The notes below the pieces were generated by a model, which was given only the letters and a program-made list of their open reading frames with translations, did not search any database and was not told the DNA's origin. DNA of 57,852 nt from a virus (lineage: Duplodnaviria; Caudoviricetes): IMG/VR virus record IMGVR_UViG_3300037470_000433, positions 1 through 57,852 of that record, one strand, 5' to 3'. How positions within the stretch are numbered: the stretch's first letter is position 1; each line of letters begins with the position of its first letter. Shown piece after piece: positions 1,073 through 54,102 of this stretch. A program made the position numbers and the translations under genes.

Positions 1073-1321
1073 CTATATCGGATTTCCGAGGTCGTCAACC
1101 GGAATTCCAAACTGGGCCGGGGTTTTGCCAAAGCGCTCCCAGCAGTATGTCCTCAAGAACGCGATCTCATACTCTGCCCTCTCGAACGCTGGATCAGGCA
1201 TCCAGAGGGATGATTCAGCGGTCGGCGGTCGCCAGTTCCTGGCGTACGTAGTTGCTGCCGGCAGGATGGCAAAGGACGCCGCTGCCAGCCCCAGCTTTGT
1301 GAAGAACGATCTCCTGGTCAT
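1073..1321 (-). CDS. Small protein with twin-arginine (Tat)-like signal peptide
   Basis: MTRRSFFTKLGLAAASFAILPAA fits S/T-R-R-x-F-L plus a hydrophobic stretch; start overlaps the scaffold stop. Confidence 0.55.
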   Translation of the reverse strand: MTRRSFFTKLGLAAASFAILPAATTYARNWRPPTAESSLWMPDPAFERAEYEIAFLRTYCWERFGKTPAQFGIPVDDLGNPI

Positions 1322-2673
1322 TTTGCAAGCTTGCGAAGGTTGGTGAACAGCGATTGACGGCTGTTCTGAGGCATGCCGCCAGATGCGCCCGGCTGCCGCC
1401 CGCCAAATTCAGGGACAGTGCCTTCGAACTCGGCCAGCTTCTTCGCCAGCGCCGCACTGTTGGCGCGCTCCTTTTCCAGCATGTAGCGCATGCGGCCAAA
1501 AGCGGCGGCGCGGTGACGCACGGCGGCGTGCTTGCGGACGACGGCGGCGCGCTGCTCGGCGGTCAGTTTGGGATCGAGCGGGTCCTGCGTGAACGCCTCA
1601 TCCACGAACTTGTAGCCCTTCTCCAGCCGCGAGTTGGCGTCAGTGTCGCCGTCAATCGGCTTGAAATACTGGCCGATCTTAGGGTCGGCGATGATGTCGT
1701 TGTTGGTCTTTTCCCATGCCTCGGCGGCGGCCTTGCGGGCCTCAGCCGTCTGCGCCTGGGTCTGCGCCTGGGTGGCCTTCGCATGCTCAACGCCATCCTT
1801 TTTGGCCTTCTCCAAGGCGGCGGCCTGGGTGTCATAGAGCTTCCGCAACTCGCGGCGATGATCCATGACATCGTTGGCTGAGCTGCCGTAGAGCTGCTCG
1901 GCGCGCTCGCGGGCCCGGTTGAGCGGCATGTTCACCAGCTCCAACAGGTCCTTGGGCGCCATCTGTCGCTCTGCACCGGTTTCTGGGTCGGCGATGACAA
2001 TCTCGCGCAGCTCCGCCATCGAGCGTGTCCACTGCTGCTCGTAGGGCTGCTGATACTTTTCCACGAACTCCTGCGACTTGGAGTAGTCGAGAAACTGGAT
2101 GTGCTGCTCCAGCTCCTTGTTCCGGGCCTCGATCTTGGACAGACGCTCTATCTCGGATTTCCGAGCTTCAGGGTCGCCGATCAGCTTGCGCAACTCGGAC
2201 ACCTCGGCCTCAGCCTTGGCGGCGCGGGCCTTGTGCTCGTCGGCGAGCTTCCAGGGGTTCACCTTGGTCTTGCGACCGTCCACTTTGGGAGCGGCGGCGG
2301 CAGCGGCCTTGTCATCCGGCGATGGGGCGCTCTCGGGATCAACGTCATCAGCGATGCCGCGCTCATCGGGCTCAGCAGGATCAGCCGGATCATCAGCACC
2401 AGGACGGTCGCCTTCAGGTTGCGCCGGTGCGGCTGGCTCGGCAGCGGGGACCTTACCATCATCTCCGCGCCCCTTGGCTCGCAGATTGGCAAACATCTTC
2501 TCGCGGGCGGTCGGCTCTTTGGGAGCGCCGGCTGCTGGCGCCATTGGCGGAGGAACAACCTTGATCTCCCCTGTGGATGGCGGAACTGCTGATCCAACAC
2601 TGGCCGGACGGGCGGTTGGCGCGGCGGGGGCGGCGGGGGATGCTGGTGCGGGGGCGGCTGCTGGTGAACTCAT
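1318..2673 (-). CDS. Putative capsid scaffolding protein
   Basis: Pro/Ala/Asp-rich disordered N-terminus, coiled-coil body, located between portal and capsid. Confidence 0.6.
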   Translation of the reverse strand: MSSPAAAPAPASPAAPAAPTARPASVGSAVPPSTGEIKVVPPPMAPAAGAPKEPTAREKMFANLRAKGRGDDGKVPAAEPAAPAQPEGDRPGADDPADPAEPDERGIADDVDPESAPSPDDKAAAAAAPKVDGRKTKVNPWKLADEHKARAAKAEAEVSELRKLIGDPEARKSEIERLSKIEARNKELEQHIQFLDYSKSQEFVEKYQQPYEQQWTRSMAELREIVIADPETGAERQMAPKDLLELVNMPLNRARERAEQLYGSSANDVMDHRRELRKLYDTQAAALEKAKKDGVEHAKATQAQTQAQTAEARKAAAEAWEKTNNDIIADPKIGQYFKPIDGDTDANSRLEKGYKFVDEAFTQDPLDPKLTAEQRAAVVRKHAAVRHRAAAFGRMRYMLEKERANSAALAKKLAEFEGTVPEFGGRQPGASGGMPQNSRQSLFTNLRKLAK

Positions 2674-2969
2674 GCTTTGTAATTGAGCTTGTTAAGGTCT
2701 GCTTTGCCTGATGCCGGAGTTGCCGGCTCAGCCAGGTTGATAAGGATGTCCAGGAACTCCTGGGCGCCTTTGATTTTCAAGAAGTAGGCAGCGGCGGCAT
2801 TGCCGTCAATTTCGACGGCGCTGGTCAGCCGGCGCTGATGATGAAGCAATGCAGCGTTGAAGGACCGGCGCAGCGCTGGATTTTGCATCAACTCGCGATG
2901 AGCTTTGCAGGCTGCTGCGCTCTCAAGGAATTCCTGCTTGGGAGTCGGGTTCGTGATCGGTGGGTTCAT
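2670..2969 (-). CDS. Hypothetical protein (head module)
   Basis: 99-aa ORF translationally coupled to the scaffold gene. Confidence 0.6.
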   Translation of the reverse strand: MNPPITNPTPKQEFLESAAACKAHRELMQNPALRRSFNAALLHHQRRLTSAVEIDGNAAAAYFLKIKGAQEFLDILINLAEPATPASGKADLNKLNYKA

Positions 2970-3021
2970 GTTCTACGCTTTATCTGCTAACAGTGTTAGC
3001 ACGTCGGCCAAATCGTGTCCA

Positions 3022-5394
3022 TCACTCTTTGGCTTTCGGCTTTTCCTTGGCCTGCTTGTCTTTGATCTTCGCCTCGGCGGTGGCCTTCTTCTGGGCGAGC
3101 AGAACGTCGCTGGCAGCCTTCACGTCGGCGAGATGCAGCTCCTGCTCCATCTGCTTACGCTCCATCTCCATCTTCGCCTCGAACTCCTGGCGCTTCTGGG
3201 TCTGCTGCATCTCGAACTGCACCTGCCGCTGTGCCGTGCGCTGAGCGTGCGACACCTTCGTGTTCTCAGCCTTGGCATTGGCGGTGATCATCATCGCCTG
3301 AATCTTGGCCTGCGCCTCGGGGTCTTGACCGCCTTGAGCGTTCTCCTGCTGCATCTTCTCCTGCGCCTGCTGGGCCAGCGCCTTGACCAGGTTCATCACC
3401 TTGCCGAGCTGATCGCCGTACTGCTTCACGCGCGCCCGCTCCTCCGGGTCTTGCGCGATCTGCTGGATGTGCTGATCAATGTGCTGCGCCATGTTCTGCA
3501 TGCCCATGATCTGCTCCATCGTTGCGGTGCGCGTCTGCATAGCTTTCTGCACGACCAGCGCCAGCGTGGCCATCAACGTGTCCACATACTCGATGTGGTT
3601 CATGCCGGACTTCATCGCCACCGGCAGGCCCTGCAACAGCGTGCCCGCTGCGAGCTGGGCGTCATGCACGGAATCCGTGATGCGGTTCGGCGACTTGGGC
3701 ACGAGCGAATCGGCACGCGCCGCGTCATCTGTAACCGCAAGGGTTACATCGTGGAGAATCTGGCGCTGCGATTCCGGATCGTAAAGATTACGCATCGTCA
3801 TCAACTGCTCGGAGATGGCCATCTCCAGGGTCTTGTTGCCCGCCCCCATCACGCGCTCCGGCTCTTGTTCCCAACAGTCGCGGTTGTAGAGGACTTTCTC
3901 TGGAACGCCCTGACGCAGGCAGTTCGCCTGGAAGCTGCGGCAATGAGGGTCGCGTGAGTTCTTGATGATGAAGCGCCGGAAAATCTCCCGGTATTCAGGC
4001 TTCTGGTAGAGGTATGCCTGTTGCAAGCCCGCGCTGACCAGGCTGGTGATGGCGTTGGTTTCAGCCATGACCTGGAACTTGGTTTTCTCGACCTGGTTCT
4101 GACCCTGCTGCGGCTGCGTTGTGTAAGACGAAGCGTTCTGTGCGATCAGGTTGGCATTCTCCATCAGCCCCATCTGGGCGAGCTGGCTGTTCACTTGATA
4201 GCGATCCTGGGCCTTGATGAAGTCCACACTGCCGTCAATGAAGCCCCGGTTCACCAGGTCCACTTTGAGGGCGCGCTGCGCTTGATCGGCGTCATTGATG
4301 CGGAAGTAAACCATGAGCTGCTCAAAGAGGGCCTCATTGAATTTGCAGCGCAGCCGATTCTGAAGATGGCAGACCGAGTAGAGAAGGAAGCCGAGAGAGC
4401 GAACCGAGTGATAGCGGAACGGCGCCACCGCTGACAGATCGGCGAACTGCCAGTTGATTATCTCCTCGCGGTGGCTGGCAAAGATGCGCTTGCCTGGGTT
4501 GTAGAGGAACTGGCCCCGGAAATCCACATACGGCTCACCGGTGCGGCGCGATGATGCGGCTGCGCCACCAGCAGCGGCGGGAGTGCTCCACGCGTCCAGA
4601 ATCATGCGGCGATTCCAGCCGGACTGTTTGGGATTGTCGTTCCAGAAGTAGAAGTCGTAGCAGTCAACCGTGGGGACCTGGTCACCCACATAGAATCCAC
4701 CATCCCCTTTGACCCGCTCCTGAATCTTCTCCGGCGACCAAACCTCGGGCCAGTTTGTGCCCATCAGCGTCATGGACTCGCGATCAATCCACTTGATCAG
4801 CGACTTCACCAGCTTCTGATTCCAGCCCGGATCAACGTGCTTGCCACTGGTCAGCTTGATCAGCTCGGGAGCAGTAAGTGATCGGTAAACCGCAAAAAAG
4901 GGCAGGTTGCTCATCGTGAGCAAGGTGTTCGCTGGCACCAGCGCATCCTCAACTCCCATGGAGTCCGGCATCCAGCGATGTGAATCTCTCCAGCCGGCGG
5001 GGGCGATCCCATGCAGGACGTTCTGCGCGAACTTGGACCGGAAGCATTCCATGTATGGGATGGAGCGCTTCATGATCTTGTTGATCTCCTTGGTCACAAT
5101 CTGGCCGTATTGCGCCCGCTTGTGAGGCGCGCCGGCGTCAGTGGTGCAGGTGAAGAAGTTGCCCGGCTTGAGGAATGCCTGGTAGAACTGGCTGCGCGCA
5201 TCGTGGCTGAGGCGCGTGCTCTCCAGGAAGTTGACGTTGACCTCAATGTTGTTCGCTTCGACCTCGGATTCGTCGTAGGGCGGCACGCCATTGAACAGTT
5301 GGTCAATCTGCGCGCGGTTCTGACTGCGGGGGTAATCAGCGAGGCGGAGCTGATAGCAAACTTGCTCGACCTGCTCTGGTTGTTCAAATGTCAT
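3022..5394 (-). CDS. Portal protein
   Basis: 790 aa, helical, long Gln/Ala/Lys-rich coiled-coil C-terminus like P22-type portals; upstream of scaffold and capsid. Confidence 0.7.
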   Translation of the reverse strand: MTFEQPEQVEQVCYQLRLADYPRSQNRAQIDQLFNGVPPYDESEVEANNIEVNVNFLESTRLSHDARSQFYQAFLKPGNFFTCTTDAGAPHKRAQYGQIVTKEINKIMKRSIPYMECFRSKFAQNVLHGIAPAGWRDSHRWMPDSMGVEDALVPANTLLTMSNLPFFAVYRSLTAPELIKLTSGKHVDPGWNQKLVKSLIKWIDRESMTLMGTNWPEVWSPEKIQERVKGDGGFYVGDQVPTVDCYDFYFWNDNPKQSGWNRRMILDAWSTPAAAGGAAASSRRTGEPYVDFRGQFLYNPGKRIFASHREEIINWQFADLSAVAPFRYHSVRSLGFLLYSVCHLQNRLRCKFNEALFEQLMVYFRINDADQAQRALKVDLVNRGFIDGSVDFIKAQDRYQVNSQLAQMGLMENANLIAQNASSYTTQPQQGQNQVEKTKFQVMAETNAITSLVSAGLQQAYLYQKPEYREIFRRFIIKNSRDPHCRSFQANCLRQGVPEKVLYNRDCWEQEPERVMGAGNKTLEMAISEQLMTMRNLYDPESQRQILHDVTLAVTDDAARADSLVPKSPNRITDSVHDAQLAAGTLLQGLPVAMKSGMNHIEYVDTLMATLALVVQKAMQTRTATMEQIMGMQNMAQHIDQHIQQIAQDPEERARVKQYGDQLGKVMNLVKALAQQAQEKMQQENAQGGQDPEAQAKIQAMMITANAKAENTKVSHAQRTAQRQVQFEMQQTQKRQEFEAKMEMERKQMEQELHLADVKAASDVLLAQKKATAEAKIKDKQAKEKPKAKE

Positions 5395-5519
5395 GATTCA
5401 CCTTCCTTGGGCGGCGATTGGCGGCCTGCTCTTTTGGGGTTGCCCACCTGCTGGCGCTTGCCGTTTGGGAAAACATGCCACCGAACGAACCTGATCGCGG
5501 TTAATCGGTTAAACTTCAT
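5391..5519 (-). pseudogene. 42-codon ORF resembling the N-terminus of an HNH/AP2 homing endonuclease (remnant)
   Basis: MKFNRLTAIRFVRWHVFPNGKRQ resembles the 'KFNRLTVI' starts of such nucleases; its stop overlaps the portal ATG. Confidence 0.3.
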
Positions 5520-5559
5520 AACGGTTCTTACATCGGAATTCCGAGATAGGCAATCTTCA

Positions 5560-6651
5560 TCAGATCACCCACTGCTCGCGATCCGCGATCATGAAGTACA
5601 AGTTGAGCCGGTATTTGATGCACTGTTTGCAGATGGCGTGACCGGTTCGCTGCTCGATCATCTGCTCTGGCGTCGTCTGCAAATAGTCCGTCAGCGTGAT
5701 GCGGCGGTCGGCGGTGCAGGCGCAGAGCTGCGTCTTGCCGTCGTGCCGGATGAACGTGAAGATCGAGCCCGCGCCCACCAGGCAGACCGGCGACACTGGG
5801 AACTTCGCATACATCTCCCGCGCCTGATCGGGGGGAATCCGCATGTGTGACAAGGTTTCGACGTAGGTCGGCCCCACCGGCGGCAGCAGGTGATTCCAGT
5901 CTGGACGCCCTTCCTGAACCTCAAACGGCGTCGCCTCCAGGTCTTTGCTGCGGCAATACTGGATCGAGTTCTCCATGCTGATCGCCCGCGCAATCGAGGT
6001 GAAGAAGCCGATCCCTAGGTTCGTGGCATACTCCCGCATCGGCTCGATCTCGTGCTGGTTGTAGTCGTAAACGTGATAGTTCACCAGGATGTTGATCTTG
6101 TTCTCACCCCTGGTGTTGTTGATCTCTGCGACCGTGCGCATGTTCGCCTTCACCTTCTCCACGTTGCCGCCCGCATGGCCGCGCACGTAAACCTCCTGCG
6201 TGAATCCGGACAGGCTGATGATGATCAGGTCGGGATTCGCGTTGAGCACATCCTCGACGTGATGAATGTGGTTCAGATTAGTGGACATCTCTGGATGTAA
6301 GCCGCGTCGGCGAATGGACGCGAGGCATTCAGCCAGCCGGGGATGCAGGAACGGCTCGGAGTTCCCGTAAACAAAGACGATGGCCTCCGGGTTCTCCAGC
6401 TTGATCTTGTCGAGAATCTTCTCCATCAGCTCCGGATCCATAAGGCCGGTCTGGTGCTCATACTTCAACCCCTCGATCTCGCCCATGTTCCCCTTGGTGC
6501 AGGACGGGCACTTCAGGTTGCAAGCGGAGTTGATCTCCAGGAAGTATCGCCAGCTCCGCATGCGGGTGTGCTCCAGCTTGATTGCGCCGTCGCCTTCCAG
6601 GAGCGGGATGGCGGAGTCGTCGTAGGCTTTCTGCATTTCTGGGGTCAGCAT
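5560..6651 (-). CDS. Radical SAM protein with SPASM/Twitch-like C-terminus
   Basis: CNLKCPSC (CxxxCxxC), 'SEPFLHP', C-terminal C...IRHDG...CAC...CKQC. Confidence 0.9.
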   Translation of the reverse strand: MLTPEMQKAYDDSAIPLLEGDGAIKLEHTRMRSWRYFLEINSACNLKCPSCTKGNMGEIEGLKYEHQTGLMDPELMEKILDKIKLENPEAIVFVYGNSEPFLHPRLAECLASIRRRGLHPEMSTNLNHIHHVEDVLNANPDLIIISLSGFTQEVYVRGHAGGNVEKVKANMRTVAEINNTRGENKINILVNYHVYDYNQHEIEPMREYATNLGIGFFTSIARAISMENSIQYCRSKDLEATPFEVQEGRPDWNHLLPPVGPTYVETLSHMRIPPDQAREMYAKFPVSPVCLVGAGSIFTFIRHDGKTQLCACTADRRITLTDYLQTTPEQMIEQRTGHAICKQCIKYRLNLYFMIADREQWVI

Positions 6652-6654
6652 AAT

Positions 6655-7338
6655 TTATGGGCAGTTGAATGGTCCGGACGGGTGGAAGTCTCGCACGCGT
6701 GGGCGACGAGGGCCAGCGCCAAGCCACACCTCGGCCTCGTAGCGCGCCTCGACGGCGTCAATGCCGCCCATGATTGGGATGCGCGGATGACTCTCGATCA
6801 GCGGCTTGGTGTTGATGAAGTCCGAGGTCGCCCACCAGAAGTTGCCGCCCCAGATGTTCTGCGTACCGTCCACCTGGCCGTCCTTCCAGTGGCAGCCAAC
6901 AGAGTCAATGCGCGGACCAAGTGTGGCGACGCAGATGCGCCAGTTCTCCACGAGATGCCGCATCATGCAGTTGCGCCAGCGAGTGGTCATGTCATCGGAG
7001 GCACTGCGCGTCGCACCCTTCGAATGGAAGTAGAGCACCTTCCAACCTTTGTGGCCGGCCATGATCTTCTGAAGGTGCATCAGCGTCCGCAGTTCGGTGC
7101 GGCATTGCAGCCCGTGGTAGATGACGTTCGCCTTTTTCGGGAACACGTAATGGCCGAACAGCTCGCTTTCCTGTCCGCCATTCACTCCGATGTGCAGCTC
7201 GGTGGCCGCTTCAAGCAAGCCGCTGGCTTCCAGTTGCTCCATCTGTTCGTTCACCACGCTGATGGCGTTCGGCAGCATGGCGGGCGGAGTGCCAAGGAGG
7301 AACAGGCAGTGGTAGAAGATGGCGATTGGTGCACTCAT
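6655..7338 (-). CDS. Putative glycosyltransferase-like protein
   Basis: 'VLYFHSKG', 'WRNCM', 'GNFWWA' and 'RYEAEVW' motifs typical of viral GT-like proteins. Confidence 0.55.
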   Translation of the reverse strand: MSAPIAIFYHCLFLLGTPPAMLPNAISVVNEQMEQLEASGLLEAATELHIGVNGGQESELFGHYVFPKKANVIYHGLQCRTELRTLMHLQKIMAGHKGWKVLYFHSKGATRSASDDMTTRWRNCMMRHLVENWRICVATLGPRIDSVGCHWKDGQVDGTQNIWGGNFWWATSDFINTKPLIESHPRIPIMGGIDAVEARYEAEVWLGAGPRRPRVRDFHPSGPFNCP

Positions 7339-8015
7339 GCAGTGTGGTAGAACGGCGGCGCCGTCATGCGGTCGCCGATCAGAAGGTTGCTTTGGTCACC
7401 GTTATGGTAGCCATTCGGTATCTCGTCCCACTTCGCCATGGGATACTCACCAGTCCAGACTACGACCAGCGGTGTCTTGCGCTGGCCGTAAATCCAAGAG
7501 GTAAGACACTTCGGCCCATGTTCGAATGGATAGCGCTGCTCTCGGGATTTAACGATGGTGGGGTACTTCCTCAGCAGGGCGGGCGACATGGCAAACCCAG
7601 TTGTGCGGATATGCGGGTGGACGCCGAACTGGACCGCGCCGCGATTGCCCATCGAGCCGAACAAGGTGTCGCCGTGTCGCTCGCGCGCCTCGGCAAAACG
7701 TCCCAGCCAGCCAACACACTTCAGGTAGGAGCTGCCGCCGAGGAACACCATCAGGTCACTGTCGTAAGTGGCGGCGGCCTTCTGGTACGCGCCGATGTCG
7801 TAGCCAGAGTCGTCATGCGCCAGCAGCTTCAGCCCCGGCAGTGAGCCAAACAGGTACTCAGTCTCTCCGTCGGTTGGGCCGCCGTTGCAGACCACGACCG
7901 TCTCATGATCCACCCCAGGCGGAAAAGCGTGGTAGGTGTTGAGGAAGCGATTGGCCAACTCCAGGTGACCGTCCCTGCCGCCGAGCGGATAGACATAAAC
8001 CACTATGATCTTCAT
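7335..8015 (-). CDS. Putative glycosyltransferase-like protein (paralogue A; start revised to MKIIVVYVYP)
   Basis: 'HDDSGYDIGAY', 'PHIRTTGF', 'RYPFEHG'; paralogous to 8012..8650. Confidence 0.55.
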   Translation of the reverse strand: MKIIVVYVYPLGGRDGHLELANRFLNTYHAFPPGVDHETVVVCNGGPTDGETEYLFGSLPGLKLLAHDDSGYDIGAYQKAAATYDSDLMVFLGGSSYLKCVGWLGRFAEARERHGDTLFGSMGNRGAVQFGVHPHIRTTGFAMSPALLRKYPTIVKSREQRYPFEHGPKCLTSWIYGQRKTPLVVVWTGEYPMAKWDEIPNGYHNGDQSNLLIGDRMTAPPFYHTA

Positions 8016-8650
8016 GCCACTTTGTTCCTCTCGATATGCTGATCCCACACCAGGCTCTGCGTCCGACTGGCGTGCTGCCATTCCTTGCGCGGGTAACACC
8101 CGTCCCAAGTCACCTGGAAAGTTCCCAGCCCCAGCCCTGCAACACAGGCAGTGAAGCCGGTGGCACCATGCTCGAACTCATACCGATTGCCATTGTGAAC
8201 CGGGATCGGGTAGGCCGCCAACAGTTCAGGGGCGCACCAGAACGCTGTGGTGCGAATGTGGGCGCGGGGCTGCTCAAATGCCCAACATCCGTATAATCCA
8301 GGACCGTTTGCCTCATACTCCTGGATGATGCGGTCCAACCACCCGGCGCGGTGGAAATGCACCGGTGCGCCCAGGCAGACCATCAGGTCGCACCTCACCT
8401 CGGCGGCGGCTTTCATGAACGCCCCAACGTCCTTCCCGGTGTTGTCATGCCTCAGAATCTGACATTCCAAGGGGGCGAACCGATTCTCTAATTCGGAATT
8501 CCGAGCTAGGCCGCCGTTCACGACCACGCAAATTTCGTGATCCTCAATCCCCGGTGGGTGCTTCATGTAAGTCTCAACGAACCGGCGCGCCAATGGGTTG
8601 TAGGTCCTGGCAGCTACCAGTGGGTAAACGTAAACCAGGACCACCCTCAC
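8012..8650 (-). CDS. Putative glycosyltransferase-like protein (paralogue B)
   Basis: 'HDNTGKDVGAF', 'AHIRTTAF', 'RYEFEHG'. Confidence 0.55.
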   Translation of the reverse strand: MRVVLVYVYPLVAARTYNPLARRFVETYMKHPPGIEDHEICVVVNGGLARNSELENRFAPLECQILRHDNTGKDVGAFMKAAAEVRCDLMVCLGAPVHFHRAGWLDRIIQEYEANGPGLYGCWAFEQPRAHIRTTAFWCAPELLAAYPIPVHNGNRYEFEHGATGFTACVAGLGLGTFQVTWDGCYPRKEWQHASRTQSLVWDQHIERNKVA

Positions 8651-8985
8651 GCCCGCCAGCCCTCCGGAAGATGGCAGTTTTCAGGGGCGTCCCTGAACAT
8701 TGGCGCAATGTCGCTGTCGGTGTATCCGGCCAGTCCGCAGCCAATCCTGGTGACCTGAAACAGCAGTCCAGGATGGGCGCGAGCATACGCTTTGAAATCC
8801 TCGACATAGGGTTTTATTTCCGGCAGTGGCAGTGTCCTGATGCTTTTATCCTTTGTCGGAATCGCATAGCAATCACCAGTTCTGCCCGCTCCAACCCCGT
8901 AAACAGCGCCGCGCAACATCCTGGCTTCGAGCGCAGCACCCTTGCCGTGACGACCGGCCAGATTGCTTCCAAACACAAAGATCAT
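8647..8985 (-). CDS. Conserved phage protein, FVFGSNxxGxHGxGAA (A1S_2505-like) family
   Basis: MIFVFGSNLAGRHGKGAA…YAIPTK…VTRIGCGLAG. Confidence 0.75.
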   Translation of the reverse strand: MIFVFGSNLAGRHGKGAALEARMLRGAVYGVGAGRTGDCYAIPTKDKSIRTLPLPEIKPYVEDFKAYARAHPGLLFQVTRIGCGLAGYTDSDIAPMFRDAPENCHLPEGWRA

Positions 8986-9695
8986 GGCCTCAGCTCCGCG
9001 ACGATCCAGCACCCTTGCACCTGCTGCAAATCCACGAGCACTTCGTCAGTCATGTGCGCCTTGATGTAGGGCAGCGGAGTGTGAACCTTCAGCTTCAGTG
9101 GGCAGAGGCAGATGTCGCAGACGTTCAGCTTCGCGTCGAAGGTGGTGGACAGCTTGCGATCCTGGAGTCGCTCGATCTGCTTCTTGATCGCTCCCGCCGC
9201 CGGCTTGGTGAACCAGCTCGTGAAGTCGCCGGAGGTGTTCTTGGGACACGCGGCGCAGACCGAGGCGCGCTGCTCGGAAAGCTCTGCCGCGACCGGCGGC
9301 TCACCCGAGTCAATCCACTCGTCGAGCGTCTTGATGCCGGACCAAATCTTACTTGCCACCCCCGCCGCAACATTTACCTGCTTTACGTTTTCGGGCGACG
9401 GGGGCTTTGTTTTTGGGGGCGCAGCTCCTGATGCTCCGCCGTCGAGATAATTCATCCAGCCGTGCTTCAGGCAGATGTTCACGTTGAACTGCTCCACCTC
9501 ATTGGCGACCGCGTCGTAATCCAGCGACCAGCCGTGCTTGGCCACCAGGTCGGGGCGTCCGGAGCGATGCCTGATCAGGTCGCGCACGATGGAATCGAAG
9601 CTGATGAAGTTGCGCGGTCGCCAGTTGGTTTGCGGCTGAATGAATCGAAACCCGTTAGGTATCTGGCTTTGCCGGCTTTTGAGGCGATAAATCAT
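8982..9695 (-). CDS. Hypothetical Cys-rich protein
   Basis: CAACP, CDICLCPLKLK and GCW motifs; coupled to the next gene. Confidence 0.6.
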   Translation of the reverse strand: MIYRLKSRQSQIPNGFRFIQPQTNWRPRNFISFDSIVRDLIRHRSGRPDLVAKHGWSLDYDAVANEVEQFNVNICLKHGWMNYLDGGASGAAPPKTKPPSPENVKQVNVAAGVASKIWSGIKTLDEWIDSGEPPVAAELSEQRASVCAACPKNTSGDFTSWFTKPAAGAIKKQIERLQDRKLSTTFDAKLNVCDICLCPLKLKVHTPLPYIKAHMTDEVLVDLQQVQGCWIVAELRP

Positions 9696-9773
9696 GTCCC
9701 CTTGTAGCCCCTCCCTCAACTTTCCGCAACTTTTTATTGCTTTAGTTAGCCAACGCTGCTAATTGTCCAGGGC

Positions 9774-9998
9774 ATGAGCAAAACCAAAGCCTGTCGCTGT
9801 TGTGGCGGCAGCGGAACAGAACTCGACAACAAAGCCACCGGAGCTGAGATGCGCGCGATGCGCATTTCCAAAGGGATGAGCCTGCGGCAGGTGGGGGCAA
9901 AAATGAAGCTCTGCGCCCCCTACATCTGCGATCTGGAAAAGGGCCACCGCAACTGGACCGAGCCGCTGGTGGCGAAATACCGAAAGGCAGTTCAATGA
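9774..9998 (+). CDS. XRE/Cro-type HTH transcriptional regulator
   Basis: 'MRISKGMSLRQVGAKMKLCAPYICDLEKGHR'; first gene of the divergent arm. Confidence 0.8.
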   Translation: MSKTKACRCCGGSGTELDNKATGAEMRAMRISKGMSLRQVGAKMKLCAPYICDLEKGHRNWTEPLVAKYRKAVQ

Positions 9999-10672
9999 AA
10001 AAGACCAAGGCCAAAAGCCCCAAAACCACCAAAAGCTCCAAACCTCAACCTACGCTGGTTGTGTTCCTGTTGGACCGTAGCGGTTCAATGGCGTCCGTCC
10101 TGGATGAAACCATAGGCGGCTTCAACGGCTACCTGGAGAAGTTGCAGAAGGACGACGACTGCACGATGCGATTTACCATGTCGCAGTTCGACTCCGTTGG
10201 CCACGACCTCATGTGCAAGGCGGTGCCGATGAAAGAGGTGAACAAGCTGACCAGGGTGTCCTACGTTCCCCGGGGCGGAACACCGCTCTACGATGCGATG
10301 GGTCGCGGCATTGCCGCCACCGAGGGAGCATCCGATAAATACAAGGTGCTGTTCGTCACGCTGACCGATGGACAGGAGAACGCCTCAAGCGAGTTCACGC
10401 TGGACGCGCTGCGCGCCCGGATCAAGCAGAAGGAGGATCAGGACAACTGGACCTTCGCCTACATCGGCATGGGCATTGAAGGATTTCATGCCGCGCAGCA
10501 CCTGTCGCAAGGGACCAACTCGGCGAGCAACGTGTTGCACACGAACAAGGCCAACGCCCATGTGGCCTACGCCGCTTTCGCTGGCAAGACCAGGGACTTC
10601 TCCAAGAGCCGGCGAGCTGGCGGGGCTGGTGGAGTGAGCGTAAGCTGCATGTGGGATTCTGAAATCAAATGA
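9995..10672 (+). CDS. von Willebrand A domain protein
   Basis: MIDAS motif LLDRSGSM, GGTPLYDAM, TLTDGQENAS. Confidence 0.9.
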   Translation: MKKTKAKSPKTTKSSKPQPTLVVFLLDRSGSMASVLDETIGGFNGYLEKLQKDDDCTMRFTMSQFDSVGHDLMCKAVPMKEVNKLTRVSYVPRGGTPLYDAMGRGIAATEGASDKYKVLFVTLTDGQENASSEFTLDALRARIKQKEDQDNWTFAYIGMGIEGFHAAQHLSQGTNSASNVLHTNKANAHVAYAAFAGKTRDFSKSRRAGGAGGVSVSCMWDSEIK

Positions 10673-10974
10673 TCTCCCCACTCTCAAACCGGCTCGTCGT
10701 CGAGCGCGTCAAGGTCGAGAAGATCGGCCACATCTTCCTGACCAATCGCATGCAGGACGACAACAACATCGGCGGACCCAAAGAGGTTCGCATTCTGGCG
10801 GTCGGACCTGGGCGACTCACCCGCAAGGGTGTGCGCGTGCCCATCGAGTGCGAGCCGGGCGACCGCGCCATCATTTTCAGCCACACCGCCGGCCCGGAGC
10901 CGATTGGTGACGGGAAGTTCATCATCACTGATGATCAAATCCTGGCTGTCATCCCAAACAAACCAAACACATGA
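10669..10974 (+). CDS. groES: GroES-like co-chaperonin
   Basis: 'ISPLSNRLVV', 'ILAVGPGR', 'PGDRAIIF', 'DQILAVI'. Confidence 0.85.
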   Translation: MISPLSNRLVVERVKVEKIGHIFLTNRMQDDNNIGGPKEVRILAVGPGRLTRKGVRVPIECEPGDRAIIFSHTAGPEPIGDGKFIITDDQILAVIPNKPNT

Positions 10975-11288
10975 AAGTTCTAACTGAAGGCCATCGCTAC
11001 GAGCTGGAAAACTTCGAGGCGAAAGACCAGCCGGGGCAGGTGCTCCAATTCATCGAGAAGAAACCCGACCTGGAAAAAGGCAACGGGGTTCTGTTCACCG
11101 TCACCGACGGCACCACCAACGAGGAGGTCCTCGCCATGCTGGTTGACCGGCTCAACTCACTCCAGGCCAAGTTCCCCTGCCGCGAGAACGCCATCGCCAT
11201 CACCCACATCGAAACCGCGCTGCTATGGCTTGAGAAGCGCACCGCCGACCGCAAAGCGCGAGGCGTTGAAGGTAAACAGCTCAAGTAA
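10971..11288 (+). CDS. Tad1/Acb2-like nucleotide-signal sponge (putative anti-defence)
   Basis: 'GTTNEEVLAMLVDRL…FPCRENAIAITHIETALLWLEKRTADRKARGVEG' matches the Tad1-family C-terminal signature. Confidence 0.7.
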   Translation: MKVLTEGHRYELENFEAKDQPGQVLQFIEKKPDLEKGNGVLFTVTDGTTNEEVLAMLVDRLNSLQAKFPCRENAIAITHIETALLWLEKRTADRKARGVEGKQLK

Positions 11289-11370
11289 CCCAATATCCCA
11301 TCCGCCCCGATCTCCTCTCGCACACGCTCCGGTCCTGGGAAGCCAGGATGACGGATGGGAAACTTAAAAC

Positions 11371-11604
11371 ATGAAAACTGTCAACTGCGGTGGATTCGCA
11401 TTTCCTTGCCCGGGGCAACAGGGTGTGAACCCAGAATCAATGGGCATGTCCTTGCGCGACTGGTTCGCCGGCATGGCGCTGCAAGGCATGCTGTCAGCTA
11501 ACGCGCCAGCGCCTCCTCACATGACTGAGGACAACGTAGATCAGTTGATGGCCAAGGCAGCATACGAGGCTGCTGACGGCATGATCAAGGAGAGGAGCAA
11601 ATGA
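11371..11604 (+). CDS. Conserved small phage protein (GMxLRDxFA family)
   Basis: 'AFP…GMSLRDWFAGMALQG…AYEAADGMI'. Confidence 0.75.
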   Translation: MKTVNCGGFAFPCPGQQGVNPESMGMSLRDWFAGMALQGMLSANAPAPPHMTEDNVDQLMAKAAYEAADGMIKERSK

Positions 11605-11900
11605 TCTCACCACATGAGGAACAATTCAGCCCTCCCGAGCACCCACTTCAAGACGGCTTACACACATTCAAATCCGGCAAGAAGCGCCCTCAGCTCTATG
11701 TGACCGGAGGGGTTATGTGGATGCCTGTCGAAATGCTACACCCAATCATGGTGTTTACATCCGGAAAGCCGCTGATGATCGTCAACGATAAGCACGGGGT
11801 AGATCACGCGTTTATGCGAGCATCAGACATGATTGAGCTGCTACCAAAACGAAAGTCAACCATCGCGGCCATCGCCACCAAACACGGTATCAGCCTATGA
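11601..11900 (+). CDS. Hypothetical protein
   Basis: Start and stop overlap both neighbours. Confidence 0.55.
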   Translation: MISPHEEQFSPPEHPLQDGLHTFKSGKKRPQLYVTGGVMWMPVEMLHPIMVFTSGKPLMIVNDKHGVDHAFMRASDMIELLPKRKSTIAAIATKHGISL

Positions 11901-12298
11901 AACCATCCACCGAATTCGATCAGTATCGCCGCAGTCCGAACAAGCAGTTTACCACCACGCCCGAGGACGGCGCCAACGGGTTCTTCGTCATTCCCATGAG
12001 CAAATCCATCGCCGGGGTCGAGCGCATCGCGCTGTGCATCATCAGCGACGGGAATGAGGACATCCCCTGGGAGCATGTCAGTGCCCGGATTTCCGAGGGG
12101 CGTGGCAATGGCTGGAAGGAGGCCACCCCCGCCTGGGACGAGATGTGCGCCATCAAGGACATCTTTTGGGGGAAGGATGAGGTTGTCATGCAGCTTCACC
12201 CAGCCGAGGATGACTATGTGAACCTTCACCCCCACGTCCTGCATCTGTGGAAGCCGACGCGCTCCATCATCCCGCTACCACCGCTGATATGCGTATGA
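11897..12298 (+). CDS. Conserved phage hypothetical protein
   Basis: 'WEHVS…PAWDEMCAIKDIFW…QLHP…YVNLHPHVLHLW', a widespread phage motif. Confidence 0.75.
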   Translation: MKPSTEFDQYRRSPNKQFTTTPEDGANGFFVIPMSKSIAGVERIALCIISDGNEDIPWEHVSARISEGRGNGWKEATPAWDEMCAIKDIFWGKDEVVMQLHPAEDDYVNLHPHVLHLWKPTRSIIPLPPLICV

Positions 12299-12921: not shown

Positions 12922-12963
12922 TTTCAGTTGTGGAATTGCCGGCAGCGAGTTAAAGATCAACTC

Positions 12964-13380: not shown

Positions 13381-13382
13381 TT

Positions 13383-15078: not shown

Positions 15079-15220
15079 AAATAACCTTTGACGCCACTGT
15101 GGTGGTGTGAGATAAGACAACCGTGCGCTGCAACCGTAACATTTTGCCCGACTCACGCCCCCCGGCAAAGGGGGCAAAAAAAGCCTTGCAGCGCATTTTT
15201 GAGTCGGGCGATTCATTTAA

Positions 15221-50394: not shown

Positions 50395-53300
50395 ATGCCT
50401 GACGCATCCGCCCCAGCCGCTCCGTTCATCAAAAAAACCGTCCACAAGTCGTCGGGACGCTTCCTGCGCTACGGCATCTTCTGGCAGCCGCATGTTGACC
50501 CGCTGGCCATGGAACTGGACTGCATCCGCATGGGTGGAAAGTGGATCAAGCAGAACGGCGACGAAGCCGGACTTGGTTTGAAGTATCACTATCGCAAGTT
50601 TCAGGAGCTGGCGTGGCCGTTCAAAATCTGGGAGAAGGGGCCGTTCAAGAACCACTGGGCTGAGGAGTGCCTCGACGCGTACCTGAACTACACCTACATC
50701 GGCGCCATGGGCTGCGCCGGGTGCGTTCGCGGCGACACCAAGCTCCTGAACCCGCTGACGATGGAGGAGCCGACGGTTCGATCCCTGTGCGAGAACAATA
50801 CTCACCCCATCGTAATGACGGCGCTTGGCCCAATCCGGTCTGGGGTGCCGTTCGTAAAGGGGGTCGCCGAGATTTACGAAGTTTCCACCAGCTCAGGAAG
50901 GAAATTCAACGCGACTGCGGAGCACTTGGTTTTGTTGACCACAGGAGTTTTTTGCCACGTCGCTGATCTCCTATGCGGGAGTTCGATTCTAATATCCGAG
51001 CCAAGCCGCCTGGCGTCCACTTGGGAACATGACCCGACAACTCATGCCTTAGATGGTCTGCGTTTTTGGCAAACAACTCCAGATTCTCAATTCGATTGTC
51101 GGCCTTGTTCTTGTTCTTGTGATGAACCACTTCCCGTCGGGTCAGCGGCCTTCCAAGGAAGTTCGACATCACCAGTCGGTGCTCTGGAACGTAGGTCCTC
51201 GCCGGGCGGCGAGCATTCGGATGGCCTGGGCAATACACCAGGACGTAACCATCTTTATCAATCAGACGGCCACCTCGCCACTGGCTATTCCGCTCTGCTG
51301 GAAACGAAGCCGGGAAATTTCGATCAGCGTCGTGCCTTTTCAGGAATGGACGGACGTGACGCTCACCCGCTCCGACCGCACGACATATCTGTTTTATTGA
51401 ACAACCTTCAGCGCTCATCTTCAGAACCAATTCCCGGTTTCTTTCGCAGGCTGAATTCTCACGTTTCATATCCCAGACTATGGGTTGCGCGGGATGTGGT
51501 CACAAGCATAAAACCCGTCGGGGTTGAGAAATTTTACGACTTGCAGGTGCCGTACGCCCATCACTACTACGCTGAAGGGTTCATTCATCACAACAGCGGC
51601 AAGAGCGACAGCTTCGGCGGCAACGTGCTCACCGACTGGTACGCCCACTCATCTTGCACGACGGTCCTGGTATCCTCCACCGACCTGAAAAGCCTGGAGC
51701 TTCGCATCTGGGGTATGATCAAGAAGTATCACAAGGCGGTGAAGTCGGAGCATCCATGGATGCCTGGATACCTGATCGAGGGAAGGCAGATGCTCACGCT
51801 TGACCCAAGGGAGGAATGTGAGGACGGGCGCGACTTCAAGAACGGCATCATCGCGGTCGCCTGTAAGAAGGGGAATCAGTTCGTCGGGCTCGGGCCGCTG
51901 ATCGGAATTCACAACAAGCGGGTGCGTCTGCTGGCGGATGAGTGTTTTCCGGCTGGGACTCCGGTCAACACCACGATGGGGACAATGCCCATTGAGTGGA
52001 TTTGCCCAGGTGACACCGTAATGTCGGCGATTGGACCAAGAAGGGTTACGGCAACTTCAAGAAAGCTGGCGAGATCGCTGGTGCTGGTGTCAATGGCTGA
52101 TGGCAGGCAAATTCGCTGCACCCCTGAGCATCCATTTCTAACTCAGGTAGGCTGGGTGAAAGCTATTGACCTTAACCAGACGCATTACATACCCTGCGTC
52201 AATGAAACATTGCGAATTCTGCAAGAAACCAATGCCGGAAAAGAACAGGCGATTCTGCGGGCTATCCTGCAACGCGAAATGGATGCACAGCCAGCCGGAA
52301 ATCAGGAAGGCGAGAGACGCCAAGATTTCCAAGGCGTTCGTGGAGCTTCACAAGAAGAACCCACACTGGGCGGAGGAAGCCCGGGAGCGCATGACCACAA
52401 ATTCTCCAATGAAGGACCCTGCAAACCGAGCCAAGATGTCAGAAACCTTGAAGCGCATTGGGCACAAACCCTCCATCCGTGGAGGGAACGGCACTGGCCC
52501 AACTGCGGCGGAGAAGATTCTTTGCGAGCGATTCCCCGAAGCGAAGTGGAATTATGCGATCACAACAGGAATGAAGCGTGGCAGCGGATACCCGCAGAGC
52601 TACAAGGTGGACCTCGGGTTTCCGATCATCAGGCTTGGGGTCGAGGCGGACGGGGGTTCGCATTGTTCTTTGGCGAGGAAGATGCAGGACAACAAGAAAG
52701 TGGAATTCCTTCGGGGGCTTGGGTGGGCAGTGTGCAGGTTCTCGAATCAGGACATAATCAACCGGACGGACTGGGTGGTGGATATACTGAAGTCTTTAAT
52801 CTCAGTGTCGAAGGCCACCCAAGCTACTCCGTCAACGGATTGATAGTCCATAACTGCAACCTCATGCCTCGGGCCTTCCTGGATGCCGCCTCCAACCTCA
52901 GCAAGTGCGAGGACTTCAAGCTGGTCGGACTCGGAAACCCGAACGAGACAACCAACGCGCACGGCTTCCTTTGCGAGCCGTCTGCCGAGCTGGGCGGATG
53001 GGAAGGCGGCATTGACCAGACCCCCGGGACCAAGACCTGGAAAACCCGATTCCCGAACGGCATTTGCATCCAGCTTCCCGGCAGCGACTCGCCCAACATG
53101 AAGGCGCCAGAGGGTGAGCCTCCGCCGTTCCCATTCCTGATCACGCGCCAGCAGATGCACGACGATGCCCTGATCTGGGGCAAGGACGACTGGCACTTCA
53201 CGATGATGAACGAGGCCAAGATGCCTCGCGGTCAGGGCAGTCGGCGCGTCCTCACCCGGCAGGCGTGCGTGAAGTTCGGGGCATTCAAAGAGCCGAACTG

Positions 53301-54102
53301 GCGGGACTCGCGCCGAACGAAGATCGCTTTCCTGGACGCAGCCTATCGCGGCGTGGGCGGCGACCGCTGCGTGTTTGGGGAGTTGCAGTTTGGCATGGAG
53401 GCCGAGGCGATCAACGCAGAGAAGCTGCTCACCACGATGATCAGCCAAAAGACCAACGACAACGACGGGCGCACGATCATCGCCCTGATTGACCTGGTAA
53501 CCATCCCGATCAGTTCCGCCCAGGGCGCCGACTCGCCGGAGGACCAGATCGTCAAGTTCGTCATGGAGTCCTGCAACGCCCGGGACATCATTCCAGAGAA
53601 TTTCTACTTCGACGCCGGCATGCGCACGTCACTGGTGACTGCATTCTCGCGCCTTTGGTCGCCACAGGTGCAGTCAGTTGATTGCGGCGCGCGGCCCAGC
53701 GAGGATGCGGTCAGTTCGGAAATCCGAACTAGCTGTCGCGACTACTACTCAAAGTTCGTCACCGAGCTGTGGTTCTCGGTGCGTATGGCGGTGGAATCAG
53801 GCCAGTTTCGCGGCATGACCGAGGAGGCCGCCACCGAGTTCTCCCAGCGCGAGTGGAAGATGGTTTCTGGCAACCGCATTGAGATCGAGTCCAAGGAGGA
53901 CATGAAGCTCAAAACTGGCCGATCTCCGGACTTGGCGGATGCCGTGGCGGTCGGCCTTTACGGGGCGCGCAAGAAGGGTTTCGTCATCAGCAAGCTTGCC
54001 AGGCCGCTGCCGTCCGGAAAGCGCGGCAGCGACTGGCGCGACGAACTCAGAAAAAAGGCCCAGCAGCTTGCGGCGGCTGGGCGGTTGAATTTCAAGGCTT
54101 AG
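50395..54102 (+). CDS. terL: Terminase large subunit precursor with two inteins (about 640 aa after splicing)
   Basis: Spliced Walker A GCAG|SGKS, Walker B LLADE|C, LGNP motif, nuclease 'FLDAAYRGVGGD' and 'GRSPDLADA'. Confidence 0.9.
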   Translation: MPDASAPAAPFIKKTVHKSSGRFLRYGIFWQPHVDPLAMELDCIRMGGKWIKQNGDEAGLGLKYHYRKFQELAWPFKIWEKGPFKNHWAEECLDAYLNYTYIGAMGCAGCVRGDTKLLNPLTMEEPTVRSLCENNTHPIVMTALGPIRSGVPFVKGVAEIYEVSTSSGRKFNATAEHLVLLTTGVFCHVADLLCGSSILISEPSRLASTWEHDPTTHALDGLRFWQTTPDSQFDCRPCSCSCDEPLPVGSAAFQGSSTSPVGALERRSSPGGEHSDGLGNTPGRNHLYQSDGHLATGYSALLETKPGNFDQRRAFSGMDGRDAHPLRPHDISVLLNNLQRSSSEPIPGFFRRLNSHVSYPRLWVARDVVTSIKPVGVEKFYDLQVPYAHHYYAEGFIHHNSGKSDSFGGNVLTDWYAHSSCTTVLVSSTDLKSLELRIWGMIKKYHKAVKSEHPWMPGYLIEGRQMLTLDPREECEDGRDFKNGIIAVACKKGNQFVGLGPLIGIHNKRVRLLADECFPAGTPVNTTMGTMPIEWICPGDTVMSAIGPRRVTATSRKLARSLVLVSMADGRQIRCTPEHPFLTQVGWVKAIDLNQTHYIPCVNETLRILQETNAGKEQAILRAILQREMDAQPAGNQEGERRQDFQGVRGASQEEPTLGGGSPGAHDHKFSNEGPCKPSQDVRNLEAHWAQTLHPWRERHWPNCGGEDSLRAIPRSEVELCDHNRNEAWQRIPAELQGGPRVSDHQAWGRGGRGFALFFGEEDAGQQESGIPSGAWVGSVQVLESGHNQPDGLGGGYTEVFNLSVEGHPSYSVNGLIVHNCNLMPRAFLDAASNLSKCEDFKLVGLGNPNETTNAHGFLCEPSAELGGWEGGIDQTPGTKTWKTRFPNGICIQLPGSDSPNMKAPEGEPPPFPFLITRQQMHDDALIWGKDDWHFTMMNEAKMPRGQGSRRVLTRQACVKFGAFKEPNWRDSRRTKIAFLDAAYRGVGGDRCVFGELQFGMEAEAINAEKLLTTMISQKTNDNDGRTIIALIDLVTIPISSAQGADSPEDQIVKFVMESCNARDIIPENFYFDAGMRTSLVTAFSRLWSPQVQSVDCGARPSEDAVSSEIRTSCRDYYSKFVTELWFSVRMAVESGQFRGMTEEAATEFSQREWKMVSGNRIEIESKEDMKLKTGRSPDLADAVAVGLYGARKKGFVISKLARPLPSGKRGSDWRDELRKKAQQLAAAGRLNFKA
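50722..51594 (+). mobile_element. Intein 1 (291 aa) in the terminase Walker A motif
   Basis: Starts CVRGDT; block B 'ATAEHLVL'; ends 'FYDLQVPYAHHYYAEGFIHHN' followed by Ser. Confidence 0.92.
50906..51469 (-). CDS. HTH-HNH endonuclease nested antisense within intein 1
   Basis: 'WRGGR…DGYV…HPNA…YVPEHRLVM…LGRPL…EVVHHKNKNKADNRIENL'. Confidence 0.85.
   Translation of the reverse strand: MKRENSACERNRELVLKMSAEGCSIKQICRAVGAGERHVRPFLKRHDADRNFPASFPAERNSQWRGGRLIDKDGYVLVYCPGHPNARRPARTYVPEHRLVMSNFLGRPLTRREVVHHKNKNKADNRIENLELFAKNADHLRHELSGHVPKWTPGGLARILESNSRIGDQRRGKKLLWSTKPSAPQSR
51943..52854 (+). mobile_element. Intein 2 (304 aa) after the terminase Walker B Glu
   Basis: Starts CFPAGT; block B 'CTPEHPFLT..GW'; ends 'VFNLSVEGHPSYSVNGLIVHN' followed by Cys. 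Confidence 0.92.
52202..52843 (+). CDS. Vsr/DUF559-like endonuclease nested in the +1 frame within intein 2
   Basis: MKHCEFC…FCGLSC Zn motif; 'PTAAE…YKVDLG…VEADGGSH…QD..K..FLRGLGWAVCRFSN'. Confidence 0.82.
   Translation: MKHCEFCKKPMPEKNRRFCGLSCNAKWMHSQPEIRKARDAKISKAFVELHKKNPHWAEEARERMTTNSPMKDPANRAKMSETLKRIGHKPSIRGGNGTGPTAAEKILCERFPEAKWNYAITTGMKRGSGYPQSYKVDLGFPIIRLGVEADGGSHCSLARKMQDNKKVEFLRGLGWAVCRFSNQDIINRTDWVVDILKSLISVSKATQATPSTD

Follow-up and report, generated by a model that had tools for sequence, protein, structure and literature searches.

A genome-wide array of a short palindrome in a Caudoviricetes genome, with a ParB-fold protein as its putative reader

The genome and its palindromes

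Here we describe a 57,852-bp stretch of viral DNA (Duplodnaviria; Caudoviricetes), hereafter the window, which is a complete IMG/VR virus record (IMGVR_UViG_3300037470_000433) with a 127-bp terminal repeat typical of a circular assembly. A 12-bp palindrome, TCGGAWWTCCGA, recurs all round this genome, within genes and between them, and the gene at 29760-30686 encodes a protein of ParB-like fold that is the candidate reader of these sites. The sequencing runs that hold the sequence are sediment and soil metagenomes (Logan contigs), with no RNA run among those listed, and a megablast search of 20 kb of the window against cultured-phage records gave no match. The sites and the candidate reader are listed below; sites are given without strand, amino acid strings are the peptides that they encode, and G numbers denote related genomes, the window itself being G000.

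1078-1089: site, intergenic, 165 bp upstream of the start of a conserved wrap-around gene (minus strand)
2153-2164: site in a 451-residue gene (1318-2673, minus strand), ARKSE; G018 has a site at the equivalent position
5533-5544: site, intergenic, between 3022-5394 (minus strand) and 5560-6651 (minus strand)
8493-8504: site in 8012-8650 (minus strand), ARNSE
15314-15325: site among doubtful small open reading frames
16060-16071: near-site with one mismatch, GT centre
18090-18101: site, intergenic, 30 bp upstream of 18131-18346 (plus strand)
19295-19306: site at codon 13 of an open reading frame at 19257-19538 (plus strand); intergenic if that start is miscalled
20793-20816: site with flanks forming a 24-bp palindrome, intergenic; core from 20799
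26866-26877: site in the proline-rich C-terminal linker of the RecT gene (26180-27094, plus strand), PRKSE; G017 has a site at the equivalent position
29760-30686: plus strand, candidate reader, 308 residues; ParB/Srx-fold N-domain, helix-turn-helix (HTH), disordered linker, and helical hairpin with a CxxC...CxxC zinc knuckle
30269-30280: site in the stretch of the ParB-like gene that codes for the disordered linker, VRNSE (residues 170-174); G017, G018, and G001 have a site at the equivalent position
34098-34109: site in a primase-like gene (33697-34758, plus strand), ARKSE between proline runs; G018 has a one-mismatch site at the equivalent position
38401-38412: site in a 2629-residue gene (minus strand), ARNSE
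41206-41217: site in the same 2629-residue gene, ARISE
42133-42144: site in the same 2629-residue gene, PRNSE
53716-53727: site in the conserved C-terminal part of an intein-bearing 1235-residue gene; other frame (SEIR)

An earlier note on this DNA reported 15 exact copies of the palindrome, and a pattern count recovers all of them; none occurs in 100 dinucleotide-preserving shuffles, and a reversed-pattern control gave no match in the window. Ten core positions are invariant in every copy, while the centre reads AATT in seven of the 15, ATTT or AAAT in eight, and TA in none. When up to two mismatches are allowed there are 30 matches in the window against 7.7 expected (standard deviation 3.0, shuffle maximum 18); five of these have exactly one mismatch (12085, 16060, 47759, 52614, and 52931), which corrects the three near-matches counted earlier. 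The gaps between sites range from 927 to 11583 bp, or about one site per 3.6-4 kb. The flanks prolong the symmetry, with a half-site consensus of about sCYAGC-TCGGA-W, and the two extended palindromes quoted earlier are both present, at 20793-20816 (24 bp) and at 53713-53730. Four copies are intergenic (1078, 5533, 18090, and 20799) and 11 lie in open reading frames (ORFs)—4 of 15 sites in the non-coding DNA that makes up roughly 7-11% of the genome. The gene list is a rough call based on GC content at third codon positions (GC3), and two of the small site-bearing ORFs (15314 and 19295) are doubtful.

Selection on the DNA of the sites

Ten of the 11 coding copies fall in one reading frame, xxT CGG AWW TCC GAx, which specifies R-N/K/I-S-E; leaving out the two doubtful small ORFs, the count is eight of nine. 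The in-frame copies often lie between proline runs or in linkers. When synonymous codons were shuffled within genes with the protein kept (1000 shuffles), a mean of 4.08 sites remained; the four intergenic copies are never shuffled in this procedure, so the coding expectation is 0.08 against the 11 observed. Selection thus acts on the DNA of the sites, as proposed in the earlier note, which also called for this kind of test.

The copy at 53716 gives some insight into how sites arise. The window reads VSSEIR at this position, against VSAEIQ, VSREIQ, and VSAQIQ in three relatives (G017, G018, and G001), and because these sequences align codon for codon, the copy arose by substitution and not by insertion. 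Most site positions differ among G000, G017, and G018, with no indels needed. The positions held in common are the ParB-like linker (G000, G017, G018, and G001), the RecT linker (G017), the 451-residue gene (G018), and, as a one-mismatch copy, the primase-like gene (G018).

Some of the site-bearing genes have features of their own. The 2629-residue ORF (35289-43178), which holds three palindromes, is without a Pfam match, and its counterparts in relatives are 2571-3443 residues long and 25-48% identical to it. The 1235-residue ORF (50395-54102) contains Hint as well as intein domains (Pfam Intein_splicing, E 2e-16). In G001 the counterpart has 686 residues and can be aligned with the N-terminal part and with residues 817-1233 but not with the rest, from which it follows that the window ORF is interrupted by inteins. 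The overlapping minus-strand ORFs 7335-8108 and 8012-8650 both match one G001 gene (37% and 41% identity), and are either a tandem pair of paralogues or a mis-called boundary.

The candidate reader protein

The product of 29760-30686 matches PHROG 1033, 'ParB-like partition protein', at E 6e-14. An AlphaFold2 model built with 33 homologues has a predicted local distance difference test score (pLDDT) of 89.8, and Foldseek matches its first ~160 residues to Noc (7nfu, E 4.6e-6), ParB (7bm8 and 6sdk), and KorB (8qa8, E 1.8e-4); the Foldseek probability is 1.00 to Noc, ParB, KorB, PadC, and sulfiredoxin (Srx), with the Noc structures 7nfu and 7ol9 on top. The N-domain is followed by an HTH (model helices 102-115, 121-128, and 132-144), and the alignments to Noc and ParB, at ~145-160 columns, extend beyond the N-domain. 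The model therefore shows a ParB/Noc/KorB fold with an HTH, in agreement with the ParB-like identity first read from the letters alone. Conserved residues of the N-domain are R18, D57-G58-x-H60-R61, and N93; on nucleotide preference, the main text of a published survey reports that divergent ParB-fold members use ATP or GTP (PMC12704722).

Sequence profiles see less of this fold. No Pfam family matched the product at E 0.01; a large protein collection lists PF02195 as precomputed for it, while our own hmmscan gave only 15.5 bits (below the 26.3 cut-off). A profile search of the PDB gave weak matches to Srx and ParB (E 0.05-0.5), and also a match to CdiA, which is probably spurious.

The C-terminal 124 residues are modelled as a helical hairpin with a CxxC...CxxC zinc knuckle (pLDDT 95). 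This domain has no clear solved relative in the fold searches (best Foldseek E 1.2; best VIA Z 7.9, to generic helical hairpins), and the lack of a match to a ParB-type C-domain is not evidence of difference. Between the two domains lies the sole disordered stretch of the model, residues 167-178. The copy that the earlier note placed inside this gene, at 30269, is indeed there and occupies codons 170-174—that is, the DNA that codes for the disordered linker.

Relatives and their arrays

Relatives were collected through a conserved 536-residue protein, which gave 30 IMG/VR loci; 19 records were fetched whole or to their ends, and with G022 and the window the comparison set comprises 21 genomes. 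A close-pattern search with the ParB-like protein yielded one relative only, the others coming from the 536-residue protein and from profile searches. Palindrome arrays are present in six of the 21 genomes and in none of the other 15. Four of them share the core TCGGA-NN-TCCGA: the window (15-20 sites), G017 (16 sites of a 22-bp form, CTACC-core-GGTAG), G018 (20 sites, with the centre loosened to NN), and G022 (9 sites, seven exact and two variant). G001 carries nine sites of AGGTY-CGGAAWTTCCG-RACCT, with a centre one base longer, and G016 carries eight of AGT-CAACCGCGGTTG-ACT. A tree of a 790-residue structural protein groups the four TCGGA genomes in a single clade (support 96/96), pairs G001 with the array-less G004 as its sister, and puts G016 in another part; this placement implies that arrays were gained or lost at least three times.

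Beyond this set, only two other IMG/VR contigs hold the 18-mer form of the motif, with one site each. A scan of one genome per prokaryotic species returned at least 120 stretches, all of them single matches and from diverse taxa. The earlier note had allowed that the motif might simply be an abundant host repeat; there is none among these listed matches, which leaves room for a rare multi-copy host.

Other repeats were seen among the relatives. G007, G010, G011, G016, and G020 have a non-palindromic 10-mer around AAAGGACA(A/G)A, in 5-8 copies per genome, which may be a shared ribosome-binding or promoter-proximal motif. G021 has up to 12 occurrences of the GC-rich 10-mer CGCCGACGCC and of its neighbours, possibly a coding repeat.

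The tie between gene and motif

The full-length ParB-like gene occurs in the array genomes G000, G001, G017, G018, and G022. In G006, G007, G008, G010, and G016 the gene at the corresponding genomic position encodes the same C-terminal domain, preceded by a different N-terminal domain of no known family. One copy of the motif lies inside the 29760-30686 gene or its positional equivalent in five of the six array genomes; this includes G016, where both the N-domain and the motif are different and still one copy of its own motif is inside the gene. From the site counts, the chance of a site falling in the gene is about 0.12-0.28 per genome, and ~0.004 for three independent lineages. Some array-less genomes also have a palindrome in the equivalent stretch of the gene, in each case unique in the genome. 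It measures 17-23 bp in G004, G021, and G008; the case is less clear in G006 and G007, with 14 and 19 bp.

A wider sample gives the same picture. Profile searches yielded 536 relatives from IMG/VR and 156 from metagenomes, and 80 loci of each set were kept. Among these, 22 of the 45 loci with a full-length gene contain a perfect palindrome whose arms measure 9 bp or longer. In the same 45 loci such palindromes occur at 0.61 per kb inside the gene and 0.073 per kb outside it, and all 25 intragenic ones lie at a relative gene position of 0.43-0.60. Palindromes of the family are long (21-28 bp, arms of 10-12), with sequences that vary widely from one lineage to another. L102 (three sites in 8 kb), L103 (three in 7 kb, two of them inside the gene), L298 (four in 19.6 kb), and L305 (three in 21 kb) also have small arrays, in each case matching their intragenic copy. 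Furthermore, 20 of 33 close homologues in a large protein collection have a linker peptide that fits a site, as judged from the protein and not from DNA; the fitting peptides represent three frames (17 R[NKI]SE, two SEIR, and one LGNPS). In the HTH, the recognition helix is D-(K/H)-T-(V/I) wherever the core is CGGA, and other helices are found in the carriers of most other motifs.

Repeats of a different layout were seen near other ParB-like genes. An unrelated phage contig (L124, 12523-12795) has six copies of TTCCC-N5-GGGAA within 270 bp, ~2 kb downstream of its ParB-like gene; these are clustered, in the manner of iterons or a centromere, and not dispersed. Two related contigs, L136 (19428-19854) and L143 (11344-11768), each have four 14-bp palindromes, CGTTAAATTTAACG, within about 430 bp, and in L136 a variant copy lies at the end of the ParB-like match.

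Spacing and flank symmetry

Five arrays were tested for spacing, with sites treated as points on a circle. Three are more even than random, as judged by the coefficient of variation (CV) of the gaps: G017 (CV 0.44, P 0.0005), G001 (CV 0.40, P 0.006), and G016 (CV 0.38, P 0.0065). The symmetry of the flanks was examined by re-pairing left and right flanks between sites; in five of the six genomes the match within a site is no better than that between sites (P 0.07-0.98). The symmetry therefore comes from a shared half-site consensus and not from site-specific pairing, which argues for recognition of half-sites by a dimer over selection for a hairpin.

The replication module and missing partners

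The ParB-like gene belongs to a replication module, with RecT and an exonuclease on one side and helicase and primase-like genes on the other. The module includes the following gene.

31077-32732: plus strand, superfamily 2 (SF2) helicase, co-inherited with the candidate reader gene; in the window an HNH gene (30667-31080) lies between the two

In each relative the ParB-like gene, the helicase, and the primase-like gene are either all there or all missing. In G004, G017, G016, G010, and G022 the helicase start overlaps the stop of the gene at the ParB-like position by 4-7 nt, where ORF starts are first-in-frame picks. The HNH endonuclease gene separates the two in the window only and has no homologue in the relatives. 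A predicted complex of the helicase with the C-terminal domain scored 0.01 against a mark of 0.32, which counts neither for nor against binding.

The earlier note saw no ParA, and a six-frame search of the complete record with PF13614 and PF01656 agrees: there is no match to a ParA-type ATPase, while 14 of 14 control genomes were positive. The window accordingly lacks the ATPase partner of a ParABS system. Six-frame searches of the window also found no tyrosine integrase (PF00589; serine recombinases, telomerases, and repressors were not part of this search), no DNA methyltransferase of three Pfam families, and no Tet_JBP dioxygenase (one family). Rfam gave no match to the window. A promoter and terminator scan of 1000-20999 placed no sigma-70-like site at a palindrome, and promoter-like sites in that segment are fewer than in shuffles (2 versus 5.7). 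There is no AT-rich element beside the sites, with an AT-richness of 0.56 in their flanks and 0.55 at random positions.

A proposed reading of the array

We consider it likely, from the sequence comparisons above, that the 29760-30686 product is the reader of the palindromes. With somewhat less assurance, we favour the wider reading in which the phage's own ParB-fold protein, working without a ParA, docks at the palindromes, including a role for that protein as a clamp. A dimer would read two half-sites (about sCYAGC-TCGGA-W) through its HTH. The primary, ancestral site would be the one in the protein's own gene, in the DNA that codes for the disordered linker just after the HTH; with the site in this position, newly made protein would meet it in cis. 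In this lineage the site may then have been multiplied by point mutation around the chromosome, to about one per 3.6 kb, with most copies settling in coding DNA in the frame that gives R-N/K/I-S-E, presumably the best-tolerated peptide. By analogy with Noc and KorB, the N-domain, with R18, D57-G58-x-H60-R61, and N93, would be a switch gated by a nucleotide. Loading at every site, followed by local spreading, would allow evenly spaced sites to give coverage of the whole chromosome; a nucleotide-gated clamp of this Noc/KorB-like kind is suggested by the fold together with the conserved residues of the pocket and the evenness of the spacing. Rather than in ParA-driven partition, the protein may act in marking, organising, or silencing the chromosome as a whole, in connection with the replication module.

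The earlier note's central proposal—that the palindromes are sites for the phage's ParB-like protein—is sustained in part by the fold, the absence of ParA, and the tie between gene and motif. Other observations weigh against it and against the reading just given. The arginine patch GERRxR is replaced by D57-G58-x-H60-R61, which is invariant in 33 sequences, and Pfam ParB_N matches the product only below threshold (E 0.018; 15.5 bits versus a cut-off of 26.3). Four relatives (G004, G013, G014, and G021) have the full-length gene without an array, which partly realizes an outcome that the earlier note had named as refuting—a ParB protein without the motif; G004 and G021 have one long linker palindrome that is single in the genome, and G013 and G014 have only a 16-bp palindrome elsewhere in the gene. 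G022 has an array without an intragenic site, the nearest being 1.1 kb upstream. Among the 21 genomes no gene is common to the array genomes only. The co-variation of motif and recognition helix that the earlier note suggested checking holds insofar as the motifs differ and the helix tracks the CGGA core, but it is weaker than it looks because the primary site is inside the gene and the two are inherited together; there are also partial exceptions, as L110 has a D-H-T-V helix and no array in 21 kb, and L102 has a different helix with a similar core, CGGA-A-TCCG. Finally, spacing is not significantly even in the window (CV 0.75, P 0.20) or in G018 (CV 0.71, P 0.09).

Alternative explanations

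The same protein could instead be a replication initiator or helicase loader, with the intragenic palindrome as an origin and the dispersed copies as extra origins or as loading or restart sites; we judge this unlikely, while giving it real weight. The position of the gene between RecT/exonuclease and helicase/primase-like genes speaks for it, as do the joint inheritance of gene, helicase, and primase-like gene, the overlap of helicase start and stop codon in five relatives, and a palindrome that is single-copy and intragenic in most relatives. The swapping of the N-terminal DNA-binding part between lineages, with the C-terminal domain kept, is also what is seen in modular initiators. On the other hand, there is one palindrome per locus (two in L103) and no iterons, the sites lack an AT-rich neighbour, and to our knowledge 15-20 origins in 57 kb would be without precedent. 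No replication-initiator family appears among the Pfam matches at E up to 1, nor among the PHROG matches, and the parts of the ParB-fold survey drawn on here describe no ParB-fold initiator (PMC12704722). That another sequence-specific protein, of phage or host, reads the sites, and that the copy in the ParB-like gene is only an operator regulating this gene, seems to us decidedly doubtful. The four array-less carriers of the gene, the array of G022 without an intragenic copy, the inseparability of the helix-motif link from linkage, and the many small ORFs of the window without a known family would all fit such a reader; yet no gene is common to the array genomes and absent from the rest, and the sole, weak HTH candidate in an adjacent position (28653-29702) lacks homologues in all the relatives, even in G017 and G018 with the same motif. 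A host factor, moreover, would leave unexplained both the three motifs in closely related phages and the one relative position of palindromes in 22 of 45 family genes.

We give very little credence to the palindromes being hairpins of RNA or single-stranded DNA, such as mRNA stabilisers, pause sites, or priming signals. The length of the family palindromes (21-28 bp, arms of 10-12) would suit hairpins, and three of the four intergenic copies lie 16-36 bp past a stop codon; but pairing alone does not need the identity of 10 core positions in 15 of 15 copies, site-specific compensatory pairing of the flanks is absent in five of six genomes, and the genes that contain copies lie on both strands. 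The sites are not followed by a T-run, no terminator was called there in the 1000-20999 scan, and Rfam is silent. Least credible of all is an origin of the copies as miniature mobile elements or as a host-derived repeat, a notion to which high copy number and identical sequence lend some appeal; in-frame palindromic elements do exist in Rickettsia. The 53716 site, however, was made by substitutions in aligned conserved codons, and not by the insertion expected of repetitive extragenic palindromes (REP), miniature inverted-repeat transposable elements (MITE), or elements like the Rickettsia palindromic element (RPE), and most positions differ among G000, G017, and G018 without indels. The 18-mer form is confined to single sites in just two other IMG/VR contigs, and a host repeat is further opposed by the finding of only single matches among the at least 120 listed stretches from one genome per species.

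Comparison with known systems

Docking sites for a ParA-less ParB-fold protein would have several parallels. Plasmid RK2 is about 60 kb long and has 12 OB sites, with IncC as the ParA partner of KorB. KorB of this IncP plasmid combines a ParB fold and HTH with short scattered palindromes and acts at a distance by sliding, according to the sections of the KorB study drawn on here (PMC11790492). The likeness to the window is that of a ParB-fold HTH protein, in our case predicted (fold match to 8qa8, E 1.8e-4), with dispersed palindromes on a ~60-kb replicon. The same sections describe features unlike those of the window, namely the clamp-locking partners KorA and TrbA, GERR-type CTP binding, and sites near promoters (PMC11790492). 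The window, for its part, has no ParA found, D-G-x-H-R, sites mostly in genes, a zinc-knuckle C-domain, and a phage replicon. Noc is a ParA-less ParB paralogue that acts chromosome-wide from many dispersed palindromes on the Bacillus chromosome, and its N-terminal amphipathic helix tethers DNA to the membrane. It resembles the window in lacking ParA and in its dispersed palindromes, and Noc structures are the top fold matches; it differs in being a host protein with far sparser sites.

Canonical ParB-parS systems need ParA and have parS clustered near the origin, with one parS inside the spo0J gene of B. subtilis. Palindromic sites, one of them in the reader's own gene, are thus shared with the window, in which no ParA was found and sites lie all round the genome. 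Lambda O has its binding sites in the linker-coding part of its own gene (ori-lambda), as four iterons with an AT-rich region at a single locus. The N-terminal DNA-binding domain, the site in the protein's own linker-coding DNA, and the replication module recall the window; unlike lambda O, the window has a single palindrome at each of 15 loci, without an AT-rich neighbour, and the protein has an unrelated fold.

Cluster O mycobacteriophages offer a further parallel. The parts of the Cluster O report used here describe more than 30 invariant 17-bp inverted repeats with 7-bp arms, a TTCGG core, and a 3-bp spacer that is mostly TTT or AAA, spread through the genome with about a third in genes and of unknown function (PMC4351075). 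These phages are described there as not obviously temperate, with a gene for a ParB-like domain and no parAB (PMC4351075). As in the window, many invariant dyads occur genome-wide, in and between genes; arm and spacer lengths differ. Positions 45000-69777 of Corndog (L378) contain 24 of the repeats in 24.8 kb, 23 of them exact, the right arm being the denser in sites; on the top strand 16 have TTT and seven AAA or AAG, and most lie in short gaps between leftward genes. None is inside the gene for the ParB-like gp90, the nearest being 135 bp away, and gp90 has no similarity to the window protein in BLASTP (E 3.3), which gives no sign of common descent.

Other orphan phage proteins of this fold have been described. 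The parts of PMC13229309 considered here present ParB-fold activators of phage thymine dioxygenases, which are without a DNA-binding domain and pair with a 5mYOX enzyme. An orphan phage ParB-fold protein acting on phage DNA—putatively so in the window—is common to both, and the window differs from the systems in that portion of PMC13229309 by its HTH and by the lack of a Tet_JBP match. The 2025 survey of the fold has, in its main text, many orphan phage members without a known role (PMC12704722), and the stem 'palindrom' is absent from that main text; the parts of it considered here report no arrays of cognate sites. Literature searches, together with the parts considered of PMC4351075, PMC12704722, PMC11790492, and PMC13229309, gave no published description of the arrangement seen in the window; the Cluster O and ParB-survey supplements may hold site lists or domain tables that bear on this.

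Significance

The array offers a putative DNA target, in concrete form, for one orphan phage ParB-fold family, along with a rule for locating it: the linker-coding part of the gene. Together the relatives provide a natural series from one site to 20 evenly spaced sites, and the ten coding copies that read R-N/K/I-S-E show the strong imprint that a signal at the DNA level can leave on phage proteins. The comparison also suggests an explanation for the unexplained repeats of the Cluster O mycobacteriophages, which are cultured and grow on a harmless laboratory host.

As a tentative extension, possible rather than probable in our estimation, the system might be one of self-contained chromosome marking: a nucleotide-gated clamp would load in cis at its own gene, the site would have been copied by point mutation to even spacing, independently in several lineages, so that the protein loads over the entire chromosome, and phage DNA would be told from host DNA for the co-inherited helicase and the recombination machinery, or be hidden from silencers or defences. 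Nucleotide switches of the ParB fold serve in partition (ParB), nucleoid occlusion (Noc), and plasmid-wide silencing (KorB). If the chromosome-marking reading is true, it would add a new use to those of the ParB switch, with an evolutionary passage from a single site to sites all over the genome.

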